From an uncultured Chloroflexia bacterium (GTDB taxonomy: Bacteria > Chloroflexota > Dormibacteria > Aeolococcales > Aeolococcaceae), in contig CAWJCO010000006.1 of assembly GCA_963841385.1 (NCBI GenBank), forward strand, positions 48,883-112,882: a DNA stretch of 64,000 bases, in the 5' to 3' direction. Under the pieces are notes generated by a model. That model saw nothing but the letters and a program-made list of their open reading frames with translations. It ran no database searches and was not told the DNA's origin. Positions 48,865 through 52,471 of this stretch are shown here, piece by piece (positions within the stretch are counted from its first letter, which is position 1; each line of letters begins with the position of its first letter). The position numbers were made by a program, and so were the translations under genes.

Positions 48865-48958
48865 GCCCGGTGGGGCTGCAGCTGCGGCACGGGCAGAGCT
48901 GAACCCCGGCCTCACCCGGTGGGGCTCCGGCTCCCACCCCGGCCCTACGATGGCCGTC

Positions 48959-50029
48959 ATGAGCAGCGCGGGTCCCGCCTCGACAGCGCCGGTTCCCACC
49001 CTCGAGGCCCCGGCGCGGCTGCGGCTGGGCCGGCTGGAGCTGGACTCCCCGGTGCTGATCGCGCCCATGGTGGGGATCACCGACGCTCCCTTCCGGCGGC
49101 TGGCCCGCGAGCTCGGCGCCGGCCTGGTCTCGGCCGAGATGACCGCCGCGGAGGCGGTGGTCCGGCTCATCCCGCGGACCCTGGAGCTGCTCAGCTTCGA
49201 CCCCGAGGTGCGCCCCGTGGCCGCCCAGCTGGTGGGCTGCGACCCCGGGGTGATGGCCGAAGCGGCGGCGATCTGCGCCGCCCGCGGAGCCATGGTGGTG
49301 GACGTCAACCTGGGCTGCCCGGTGCCCCGGGTCACCGGCCGGGGGTCGGGCGCGGCGCTGGCCCGTGACGTCCACGCCACCGCGCGGGTCGTGCAGGCGA
49401 TGGTGGAGGCCGTCGACGTCCCCGTCACCGCCAAGATGCGGCTCGGTTGGGACCACGCCTCCATCAACGCCCCGGAGCTCTCCCGGGCCCTGGAGGACGT
49501 GGGGTGCGCCATGGTGACCGTCCATGGGCGGACCCGCGCCCAGCGCTACCAGGGCCAGGCGGACTGGGAGGAGATCGCCCGGGTCAGGCGGGCGGTGCGC
49601 ATCCCGGTGGTGGGGAGCGGCGACGTGACCGACGTCCGGGAGATCCGGCGCCGGCTCCTGGCCGGAGAGGTGGACGGGGTGGTGGTGGCCCGGGCGGCGC
49701 TCGGGAACCTCTGGTTCATCCGCCAGGCCGTCCGCCACGCGGCCACCGGTGAGCTGCTCCCCGACCTGGGGTTCGCCGAACGCATCGCGCTGACCCGCCG
49801 CCACCTGGACCTCCTGATCGACTACCACGGGGAGGCCCGGGCGCTGGTGGTGGGCCGCAAGTACGTGGCCTGGACGATCAGGGGATGCAATGGCGCCGCC
49901 CGGCTTCGGGCGATGGTCCAGACCCTGGTCACCCGCGCCGACCTCGACGCGATCCTCGATCAGGCCCTCGAGGCGGGGCTGGGGCCGGGCGGGTGGTTCC
50001 ACCCCGTCTTCACGAGTGGGGAGGGCTGA
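48959..50029 (+). CDS. dusB: tRNA-dihydrouridine synthase
   Basis: APMVGITD, DVNLGCP, GSGAAL, KMRLGW, HGRT, GSGD, ARAALGN; start 48959 preferred (TACGAT 7 nt upstream). Confidence 0.9.
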   Translation: MSSAGPASTAPVPTLEAPARLRLGRLELDSPVLIAPMVGITDAPFRRLARELGAGLVSAEMTAAEAVVRLIPRTLELLSFDPEVRPVAAQLVGCDPGVMAEAAAICAARGAMVVDVNLGCPVPRVTGRGSGAALARDVHATARVVQAMVEAVDVPVTAKMRLGWDHASINAPELSRALEDVGCAMVTVHGRTRAQRYQGQADWEEIARVRRAVRIPVVGSGDVTDVREIRRRLLAGEVDGVVVARAALGNLWFIRQAVRHAATGELLPDLGFAERIALTRRHLDLLIDYHGEARALVVGRKYVAWTIRGCNGAARLRAMVQTLVTRADLDAILDQALEAGLGPGGWFHPVFTSGEG

Positions 50030-50117
50030 CCGGCGGGACCCGGCTGGGTCCGCCAGCAGCTCGGTGTCACGCCCTGCCCCGCCCTCGCCGCCGGTGACGT
50101 GAACAGGCTCCCAGATC

Positions 50118-50154
50118 AAAAAAGAGGGCGCCCCTGGAAGACCAGAGACGCCCC
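50118..50154 (-). terminator. Intrinsic terminator (minus strand)
   Basis: GGGGCGUCUCUGG-UCUU-CCAGGGGCGCCCU, 13-bp stem with G:U pairs, then CUUUUUU. Confidence 0.8.
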
Positions 50155-50194
50155 GAGAGGGGGGGCTATGAAGGCGCGGTCCCCGACCGCTGGT
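50118..50194 (-). ncRNA. Candidate ~75-nt small RNA
   Basis: Bounded by a minus-strand TTGACC-N18-TATCAT promoter and a minus-strand intrinsic terminator; 5' hairpin plus C-rich single-stranded core. Confidence 0.55.
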
Positions 50195-50198
50195 CTAG

Positions 50199-50228
50199 AT
50201 GATAGGTAGGTTATCAGATCGGGGTCAA
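50199..50228 (-). promoter_or_regulatory. Sigma70-type promoter (minus strand)
   Basis: TTGACC (50228-50223), 18-nt spacer, TATCAT (50204-50199). Confidence 0.6.
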
Positions 50229-50365
50229 TCAGGTGGGGTCAGTTTGTTACGCGAACGTCGCCACCATCGTTTCACCCTCAGCACCTATACTCCCCTGCTT
50301 CCCCCCCTGATGCGCCGGCGTCGCTCGCCAGGCCCCATCCGCAGTCACGAAGGTCAGCCATCGCC

Positions 50366-50827
50366 ATGGACAAGCCGGTCTTGCTCACCAAAGAGGGCCT
50401 CGGCAAGCTCCAGACGGAGCTCGACGAGCTCCGGACGGTGCGACGCCCCGAGATCGCCGAGCGGATCAAATACGCGAAGGACTTCGGTGACATCACGGAG
50501 AACGCCGAGTACGAGGATGCCAAGAACGAGCAGGGCATGCTCGAGGGTCGCATCCTCACCCTGGAGATGATGGTCCGCAACGCCGTGATCATCGAGCAGG
50601 CGGAGGTCGGCGGCGTCGTCCAGGTCGGATCCACCGTCGAGGTCAAGGACGAGTACGGCACCCAGAGCTTCACCATCGTCGGTCCGGCCGAGGTCGACGT
50701 GACCTCCGGGAGGATCTCGATGGAGTCGCCGGTGGGCAAGGCCCTGCTCGGTCGCCGGATCGGGGACCGGGTCGAGGTCCAGAGCCCCGGCGGGGTGCGC
50801 GAGCTCCAGGTGACGGCCCTCCGCTGA
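50366..50827 (+). CDS. greA: Transcription elongation factor GreA
   Basis: LTKEG..KL..EL, GDITENAEYEDAK, ISMESPVGKALLG; -10 TATACT at 50286. Confidence 0.96.
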   Translation: MDKPVLLTKEGLGKLQTELDELRTVRRPEIAERIKYAKDFGDITENAEYEDAKNEQGMLEGRILTLEMMVRNAVIIEQAEVGGVVQVGSTVEVKDEYGTQSFTIVGPAEVDVTSGRISMESPVGKALLGRRIGDRVEVQSPGGVRELQVTALR

Positions 50828-50887
50828 TCTCCCCGGAAGGGGCTGGGCGCACGGGAGAGCCCGCCGCTCGGGCACCATGTACGCGGC

Positions 50888-52471
50888 ATGCCCGACGATC
50901 CCTTCATGGCCGAACGCAGGCGCAAGGCCGAGGCCCTCGCCGCCCTGGGCTTCCCCGTCTACAACGTCGACTTCCGCCCCGATCACACCCTGGCGGAGGC
51001 GCAGCGCGCCCTGGTCGACTGGGAGGCTGGCGCGCCACCCGCTGACGCCCCGGGGCCGGAGGTCGCTGTGGCCGGCCGGCTCATGCTCCACCGCATCCAG
51101 GGAAGGAGCGTCTTCTCCCACCTCGAGGACGAGACCGGCCGGATGCAGGTCTGGTTTCGCCAGGACCAGCTCGGCGAGCCGGCCTTCGAGGCGGTGAAGC
51201 TGCTCGACCTCGGCGACATCGTCGGGGTGGGGGGGACGCTGATGCGGACCCGGCGGGGAGAGCCGACTGTGCTGGTCCGGGCTCTGACGCCCCTGGTCAA
51301 GGCGTTGCGCCAGCCCCCGGAGAAGTTCCACGGGCTCCAGGACCAGGAGACCCGCTATCGCAAGCGCTACTACGACCTGATGTCCAGCGTCAGCCAGCGG
51401 CGCCATTTCCGGACCCGCGCCGCGCTGCTCCGCAGCGTGCGCAGGACCCTCGAGGACCGCGGTTTCCTGGAGGTCGAGACCCCCATCCTGCAGCTGATCC
51501 CCGGGGGCGGGCATGCCGTCCCATTCCGGACGCATTGGAACGCTCTGCACACCGACGTCTACCTGAGGATCGCCATCGAGCTGCACCTCAAGCGCCTGCT
51601 GGTCGGGGGCTACCGCCGGGTGTACGAGATCGGCCGCGTCTTTCGCAACGAGGGCCTCTCGCCACGCCACAATCCCGAGTTCACGATGCTGGAGGCGTAC
51701 CAGGCCTACGCGGACTATGCCGACATGCGCGAGCTGACCGAGGCGATCGTCGTCGACGCCGCCCGGGCCATCCCGGCTGCCGCACCCGGCGCCGCCGAGG
51801 TGGAGGAGCGCGAGGGCGATGCCCGGGATGCCGTCGGGGTCCCCGCGCCCCTCGTCGACCCCCTGCGCCGGCAGTACGGCGGCCGCGCTCTGGACCTCTC
51901 CCCACCGTTCCCGGCACGGACCATGGCGAGCCTGATCGAGGAGGTGTGCGGGTTCGACCCGGTGAGCGCCTGGGACGCCGGCACGCTGGAGGAGCGGGCC
52001 CGCCAGGCGGCGGTGGAGCTGCCCGCCGGCCTGGGCCCCGGCACCATCTTCAACGAGGTCTATGAGCAGAAGGTCGAACGCACCCTTCACGACCCCACCT
52101 TCGTCCTCGACTACCCGGCCGAGGTGAGCCCCCTGGCCCGGCGGCGGCGCGACGACCCGCGCTTCGTGGAGCGCTTCGAGCTGGTGGTCGCCGGACGGGA
52201 GCTGGCCAACGCCTTCAGCGAGCTCAACGACCCCATCGACCAGCGCGCCCGCTTCGAGGAGCAGGCCCGCCGCCGGGAGCTGGACGAGGGCGTGGGCCCC
52301 CCCCTGGACGAGGACTTCCTGGAGGCGATCGAGGCCGGGATGCCGCCCGCCGGCGGCCTGGGCATCGGCCTCGACCGGCTGGCCATGCTGCTCACCGACA
52401 GCCCCGGGATCCGCGACGTGCTGCTCTTCCCGACCATGCGTCCCCAGGGCGGAGAGGAGGCCGAGGTGTGA
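50888..52471 (+). CDS. lysS: Lysyl-tRNA synthetase class II
   Basis: OB-fold; [49 protein letters not shown]. Confidence 0.96.

Follow-up and report, generated by a model that had tools for sequence, protein, structure and literature searches.

The spacer between dusB and greA in the window, by which we mean the whole 64,000-nucleotide stretch of DNA analysed here, raises the question of whether the strand opposite both genes encodes a small RNA of its own and, if it does, how that RNA might act. An original prediction, drawn from the letters of this locus, had proposed that an unannotated small RNA (sRNA) gene lies here, equipped with its own promoter and terminator, and our comparative analysis bears this out across the order to which the host belongs. 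We conclude that the dusB-greA spacer very probably holds a real, independently transcribed sRNA gene, and that the element is more than the product of chance because it is conserved in related genomes.

Organisation of the sRNA gene

The features of the locus, each with the basis for its assignment, are as follows.

48950-50029, plus strand: dusB, flanking gene
50366-50827, plus strand: greA, flanking gene
50223..50228, minus strand: -35 hexamer TTGACC of the predicted sRNA promoter (consensus scan)
50199..50204, minus strand: -10 hexamer TATCAT of the predicted sRNA promoter (consensus scan)
50118..50192, minus strand: predicted sRNA transcript of ~75 nt (sequence, RNAfold and genus-level conservation boundary)
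50176..50190, minus strand: 5' hairpin GCGGUC-GGG-GACCGC (RNAfold; its sequence varies by lineage and the hairpin is kept)
50166..50175, minus strand: variable single-stranded linker (CGCCUUCAUA plus G), which includes CUUCAU (unconserved in alignments)
50155..50165, minus strand: invariant single-stranded seed CCCCCCCUCUC (identical in all homologues)
50125..50154, minus strand: terminator hairpin (scan; base GGGGCGUC invariant in greA-linked copies)
50118..50124, minus strand: U-tract CUUUUUU of the intrinsic terminator (sequence and scan)
50286..50291, plus strand: probable -10 TATACT of the divergent greA promoter, within motif CCTATACTCC (recurrence in the family f1)

The sRNA promoter lies where it had been placed, as TTGACC-N18-TATCAT. 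With its spacer of 18 nt it scores 10/12 in a consensus scan and is the sole promoter-like site in 2.5 kb, none arising in 50 shuffles. The 5' end of the predicted transcript was set 6-9 nt past the -10 hexamer and its 3' end where the U-tract stops. The terminator has a 13-bp stem, in which 9 G-C pairs are combined with G-U pairs, and leads into UCUUUUUU to 50118; the scan called it on the minus strand only, in agreement with the strand specificity originally claimed for it. Likewise, RNAfold returned the order of elements that had been described for the predicted RNA, namely a 5' hairpin, then unpaired, C-rich GCCUUCAUAGCCCCCCCUCUC, and then the terminator. No tRNA or tmRNA was found at the site.

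Promoter and structure across homologues

Comparison of 126 distinct homologues revealed that a sigma-70-type promoter always stands at the same relative place, so that the promoter of the window is conserved as well as correctly located. The -35 hexamer takes the form TTGAC[GC] in 68 homologues and TTGCC[CG] in 34, the -10 hexamer reads TATGAT (42), TATCAT (36) or TAGGCT (22), and the spacer measures 17 bp in 104 of 125. The predicted transcripts are 62-100 nt long, and in the folds of 123 homologues ~20 unpaired nt separate a 5' hairpin from a terminator hairpin.

The two hairpins are conserved in different ways. For the 5' hairpin, ~100 different sequences still fold, including GGCGCUU..AAGCGCC, CCGGGG..CCCCGG and CACAG..CUGUG besides the GCGGUC..GACCGC of the window, and a compensatory variant, GCGAUC..GAUCGC, occurs in locus L109. 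When 120 distinct 5' parts were set against dinucleotide shuffles, they folded better (mean z = -1.31, for sequences that are mutually related). In the terminator, the base of the stem, GGGGCGUC/G(G/A)CGCCC, is unvarying in greA-linked copies and the top of the stem covaries with the loop. Paired states fill 98.4% of the alignment cells of this helix, three pairs are changed on both sides, and the covariation score was reached by none of 500 shuffles; the covariation that had been proposed as a check is thus present in the upper part of the terminator stem. U-rich tails follow in most homologues.

Between these hairpins lie a variable linker of ~10 nt, 3' of the 5' hairpin, and a seed that does not vary, its form across homologues being (G/A/U)CCCCCCCUCUC. 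The sequence GCCCCCCCUCUCGGGG stays unchanged, and this holds also for paralogues whose stem differs. The mean predicted unpaired probability of the seed is 0.77, a value no higher than that obtained with shuffled 5' parts. Since a paralogue in genome G122 alters the stem yet keeps GCCCCCCCUCUCGGGG, it is the seed, together with the first four G of the stem, that is most strongly constrained. Two elements of the original prediction did not survive this comparison. The CUUCAU that had been read as an 'anti-AUG AAG' core sits in the variable linker and is absent from loci of the same genus such as L004, L005 and L009, and in these loci the ATG is lost from the 13-aa plus-strand ORF to which the RNA had been suggested to be antisense; the start codon and frame of this ORF fall in the variable linker and hairpin.

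Distribution and conservation

A DNA search found the spacer element in 39 of 41 related genomes. Within the genus, the alignment runs from 50117-50119, the last bases of the U-tract, to the greA start with 86-93% identity, and the dusB-proximal 88 nt of the spacer are unconserved. At the level of family and order only 50117-50166 is retained, at 82-94% identity, which corresponds to the terminator and the C-rich stretch; the exact string CCCCTCTCGGGGCGTC was present in all fetched loci. Indeed, the core does not differ even where the LysS proteins of two genomes are no more than 47-54% identical.

Matches to a core pattern were found in at least 120 species-level genome records, of which most bear the name Candidatus Dormibacterota or Dormibacteria and a few bear other names, and in at least 119 metagenome contigs, all of 1 kb or longer; since the pattern fixes the core sequence, these matches cannot gauge core invariance. 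A covariance model, R1, built from the linker, seed and terminator, avoids this bias. We ran it on 401 genomes drawn evenly from the phylum in the collection used, and each of the 22 genomes sampled from the families f1 (18) and f2 (4) gave a score of 58-79 bits. Outside the window's order nothing among the 401 genomes exceeded 32 bits. The weak matches (28-32 bits) elsewhere in the phylum were rejected as generic GC-rich terminators or coding sequence, one example being the terminator at the 3' end of dnaK in locus L419. No such element was found upstream of greA in 16 genomes of the sister families f3-f5. Because the model matches f1 and f2 only, and because the greA upstream regions of f3-f5 lack the element, the candidate family is, as far as these genomes reveal it, confined to one order.

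A different arrangement was observed in four f5 loci that are without the sRNA (L158, L159, L161 and L162), in which a GC-rich hairpin in the greA 5' UTR, with a U-run behind it, directly precedes the start codon. The hairpin may terminate or attenuate transcription within the leader, in the manner of GraL of E. coli.

Genomic context and paralogues

At almost every locus the sRNA gene and greA-lysS point away from each other, the greA start lying 130-370 nt from the core, and an inserted gene occurs in a few of the greA-linked loci. On its other side is dusB, the orientation of which differs by lineage. In some lineages dusB is on the same strand as the sRNA gene and starts 17-90 nt past the hairpin. 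Such downstream dusB genes have a -10-like box before the start codon, either TAGCAT-N7-ATG (L126, L153) or TACCAT-N6-ATG (L037, L086, L117), and so dusB appears to possess its own promoter box placed for a leaderless start; given this box, the sRNA would not simply be a dusB leader.

The motif CCTATACTCC (window 50284-50293; GGAGTATAGG on the sRNA strand) recurs across f1 upstream of the sRNA promoter, and is probably the -10 region of a greA promoter placed back to back with that of the sRNA. A GTAACAA motif is also seen between the sRNA and greA promoters in several genera. In many lineages lysS (window 50870-50890) and greA have no obvious Shine-Dalgarno sequence, and several genes appear, from their sequences, to be leaderless.

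Extra copies of the sRNA core occur in some genomes in unrelated contexts, and these are of two types. The first (L036, L069, L088, L123, L148) is without the 5' hairpin and has a perfect 14-bp palindrome, ATGGGCATGCCCAT, over the -35 region; it is found downstream of an ORF for a helix-turn-helix (HTH) protein resembling MerR or excisionase, convergent with an enoyl-CoA hydratase gene, and may be a separately regulated sibling sRNA. The second (G122) has its own TTGACC promoter and a different 5' domain and terminator stem, with GCCCCCCCUCUCGGGG kept exactly.

Search for targets and for RNA-binding proteins

The target prediction that had been proposed as a further check gave no signal above background, and the high GC content is responsible for a heavy background in such searches. 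In the window's genome (71% GC), the energies of seed pairing with translation-initiation regions were the same as those of shuffled seeds. The perfect 10-mer complement was as frequent as a reversed control in 41 genomes; in genome G018 the sole such complement was the antisense of the sRNA gene itself, and in lower-GC relatives the few 10-mer sites had no gene in common. When the window's genome was compared with the whole genome of one lower-GC relative (G021; 1.45 Mb, 62.8% GC), the 398 orthologue pairs contained no conserved site above control seeds. Nor was a conserved pairing site found in the start regions of greA, lysS, dusB, serS and other neighbours.

Two individual sites were considered and set aside. 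The greA codons for RRPEI (GACGCCCCGAGA, 50442-50453) are a perfect 12-nt complement of sRNA UCUCGGGGCGUC in the window's genome only, and control of greA through this coding-region site was rejected since the site is unconserved across 135 greA genes. In G021, codons 6-12 of an orphan gene for a 233-aa membrane protein (contig C51; L231 18330-18470) provide an 18-nt complement to the sRNA core; this protein has no homologue in 40 relatives, and so was rejected as a general target, being at best a lineage-specific one. Three direct CAATTCGGTGCC repeats were also observed upstream of this gene, together with a TAGAAT box at a distance of 8 nt from its ATG.

The complement of RNA-binding proteins in the host was examined by the same comparative route. 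None of 31 genomes of the order yielded Hfq (PF17209), with positive controls matched, and the Rho RNA-binding domain (PF07497) was likewise found in 0 of 31, with control genomes matched. Termination in the order presumably relies on intrinsic terminators. In the window's genome, which is 68% complete, tblastn produced no convincing match to ProQ or CsrA. An Hfq-dependent sRNA was rejected in view of the absence of Hfq from the host order (0/31), as was a Rho sponge, in which the C-rich single strand would resemble a Rho site, in view of the absence of the Rho RNA-binding domain (31/31).

Discussion

The reading that we favour, and to which we give about half of our confidence, is that the RNA acts by chaperone-independent base-pairing of a C-rich seed with mRNAs; this mode of pairing is the likeliest because the order is without Hfq and Rho. 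The locus would then be a stand-alone sRNA gene, with a sigma-70-type promoter of its own to start transcription and an intrinsic terminator to stop it. The 5' hairpin would probably protect or scaffold the RNA, and the always-identical unpaired stretch GCCCCCCCUCUC would serve as a C/U-rich seed acting in trans. By pairing with G-rich, Shine-Dalgarno-like mRNA sites (GGAGGGG or GAGAGGGG), the seed could keep ribosomes from binding or alter the stability of the mRNA. Hfq would be dispensable, as C:G-rich duplexes are strong enough without a chaperone. Sequences of the GGAGG type are common as Shine-Dalgarno sequences in the window's genome. The original prediction had envisaged an anti-Shine-Dalgarno RNA that blocks translation in trans: the C-rich core on which this rested is conserved, and blocking is plausible, but no target rises above the control seeds.

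It is also conceivable, if unlikely on balance, that a real RNA is made here which binds a protein or the ribosome and not mRNAs, acting as a decoy, sponge or assembly factor through a partner that recognises the invariant GCCCCCCCUCUCGGGG and the adjoining helix. At least 16 invariant nucleotides together with an invariant stem base exceed typical seed needs, and could instead reflect a protein or ribosomal partner. The invariance of the core in genomes whose LysS proteins have diverged so far, the constancy of the stem base in all greA-linked copies and the lack of signal in the mRNA target searches are each consistent with such a partner. Conversely, the paralogues change the stem and keep the seed, which implies that the sequence of the helix is not essential. 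Hfq and Rho are the obvious binders of U-rich and C-rich RNA, and both are absent; the window's genome yielded no convincing ProQ or CsrA, and our searches brought forward no candidate protein partner. A specific form of this explanation, to which we attach a far lower probability, has the seed pair with the 3' strand of 16S helix 44 (GAGGGGGG), beside the A residues of the decoding site. The sequence GAGGGGGGU(G/U)AAGUCGUAAC, an 8-nt complement of the seed, was present in all five 16S genes examined; however, a match of 8 nt in a 1.5-kb rRNA is roughly what would be expected at random, and in the mature ribosome the strands of helix 44 are paired. Carried to its furthest point, the argument would make this an order-specific RNA directed at the ribosome or a protein, with no part in mRNA regulation, whose GCCCCCCCUCUCGGGG module engages a universally conserved partner. 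We consider this improbable. The candidate partner could be the G-rich 3' strand of 16S helix 44 by the decoding centre, engaged while 30S subunits assemble or hibernate; a partner of this sort, if it were the true one, would explain an rRNA-like invariance of sequence in bacteria named for dormancy.

The 16S rRNA gene of one genome (G429; locus L180) has a peculiarity of its own near the 3' end, where an insertion of ~790 nt follows ...GAAGTCGTAA in the region of helices 44 and 45. The insertion contains an ORF that resembles, by eye, a homing endonuclease of the LAGLIDADG type, and on that account the insertion could be an rRNA intron or intervening sequence.

A role in cis on the neighbouring genes was another way to read the locus, whether the RNA were antisense to the 13-aa ORF, acted on greA through 50442-50453, or formed a leader or attenuator of dusB. 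Tight synteny with greA-lysS and dusB would fit such a role, as would the perfect 12-nt greA complement in the window and the position of dusB 17-90 nt downstream on the same strand in some lineages. Each of these observations meets a comparative objection, however. The 13-aa ORF is unconserved even within the genus; the greA complement varies or vanishes elsewhere, as where RRPEI becomes RRAEV, and its use would demand that the terminator open; dusB flips orientation by lineage and, where it is downstream, appears to have its own -10-like box. Paralogues in unrelated contexts and the lack of conserved pairing with the start regions of greA, lysS and dusB weigh in the same direction. We regard action in cis as very improbable, and as largely refuted by the comparative data. 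Smaller still is the probability that there is no functional RNA, that the hairpin ends antisense or convergent transcription, and that the promoter-like site is fortuitous or has some other role in the DNA. GC-rich hairpins with similar bases do form ordinary terminators elsewhere in the phylum, such as that at the dnaK 3' end in L419. Against this, more than 100 divergent genomes would not preserve a chance promoter at a constant distance and with a 17-bp spacer, and an ordinary terminator would have before it neither an invariant single-stranded motif of 12 nt nor a 5' hairpin whose structure is conserved; nor would it retain the motif in paralogues. The orientation of dusB varies, moreover, and the layout of the element does not.

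With chaperone-independent pairing to mRNAs as the preferred reading, the wider significance of the locus can be considered. Soil, peat and permafrost harbour Candidatus Dormibacteria (formerly AD3) in abundance; these bacteria are uncultured, and the literature searched here describes no RNA regulator for them. The element presented here would give Dormibacteria a first well-defined candidate sRNA family: a covariance model describes it, its genomic members number at least 120, its boundaries are clear and its seed is invariant. It can be used for an Rfam entry, for annotating metagenome-assembled genomes and for looking in peat and permafrost metatranscriptomes. Furthermore, it adds a case of candidate C-rich-seed riboregulation in a lineage without Hfq and Rho and so bears on how base-pairing sRNAs may act without classical chaperones, a mechanism that is itself not new in kind.

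Comparison with known RNAs

Scans of the window and five homologous loci at Rfam gathering thresholds returned nothing at the site, and a scan at E<=10 returned only noise, the best match being suhB/mmgR (RF00519) with 15.1 bits against a gathering score of 41 (E = 4.7). Hence the original statement that the RNA belongs to no recognised family holds, in that no Rfam family matches it. The mmgR/alpha-r8 family ('suhB', RF00519) shares a small hairpin, a C/U-rich stretch and a terminator with the RNA described here, and is the only Rfam model that aligns; it is, however, an alphaproteobacterial family, and the window's RNA falls below its threshold and is not a member. E. coli GraL consists of sense-strand greA leader RNAs made by termination within the leader. 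It resembles the present case as a small RNA tied to the greA promoter region, but the RNA here is divergent, on the opposite strand and without overlap with greA.

In architecture, Yfr1 of cyanobacteria is the closest counterpart, with no detectable homology between the two. It is a 54-69-nt RNA in which two stem-loops flank an unpaired stretch of 16-20 nt (Voss et al. 2007, PMC2190773), and this unpaired spacer contains an ultraconserved undecanucleotide, ACUCCUCACAC (PMC2190773). The likeness is one of architecture only, and comprises the two stem-loops, an unpaired, pyrimidine-rich and ultraconserved motif, a promoter and terminator of its own and a lineage-wide occurrence. The motifs differ, ACUCCUCACAC in Yfr1 as against CCCCCCCUCUC in all homologues here, as do the hosts, cyanobacteria as against f1 and f2 of Candidatus Dormibacterota, with no Rfam match at E<=10; Yfr1, moreover, has known targets.

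In likely chemistry, the closest systems are 6C and RoxS/RsaE, in which C-rich seeds are directed against G-rich sites. The 6C sRNA (RF01066) belongs to high-GC Actinobacteria without Hfq, in which runs of at least six C pair with G-rich mRNA and no chaperone takes part (PMC6486639); chaperone-free pairing by C-rich loops has been shown for the mycobacterial 6C (PMC6486639). A high-GC host without Hfq and a C-rich seed are common to both RNAs. The C-runs of 6C lie in the loops of two hairpins, however, whereas the single C-run here lies between hairpins, and the taxon and genomic context differ, with no match to RF01066 at E<=10 or at the gathering score. For RsaE/RoxS of the Firmicutes, and for other C-rich sRNAs, unpaired C-rich motifs have been proposed or shown to mask G-rich ribosome-binding sites. 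These RNAs share with ours an unpaired C-rich motif and an end formed by an intrinsic terminator, but they have several short CCCC motifs in place of the one 12-nt block found here, they are not related to it in sequence or structure, and no Rfam match links them to it.

The RNA thus has the generic marks of a trans-encoded sRNA, namely its own promoter and intrinsic terminator, no overlap with coding genes and a conserved, accessible seed. It is not a member of the Yfr1, 6C, RoxS or RsaE families, because tests of motif, taxon and covariance model all fail to place it there. Taken together, the comparisons across genomes identify it as a new, order-specific candidate sRNA family, closest to Yfr1 in its build and to 6C and RoxS/RsaE in the pairing that its seed would likely make.
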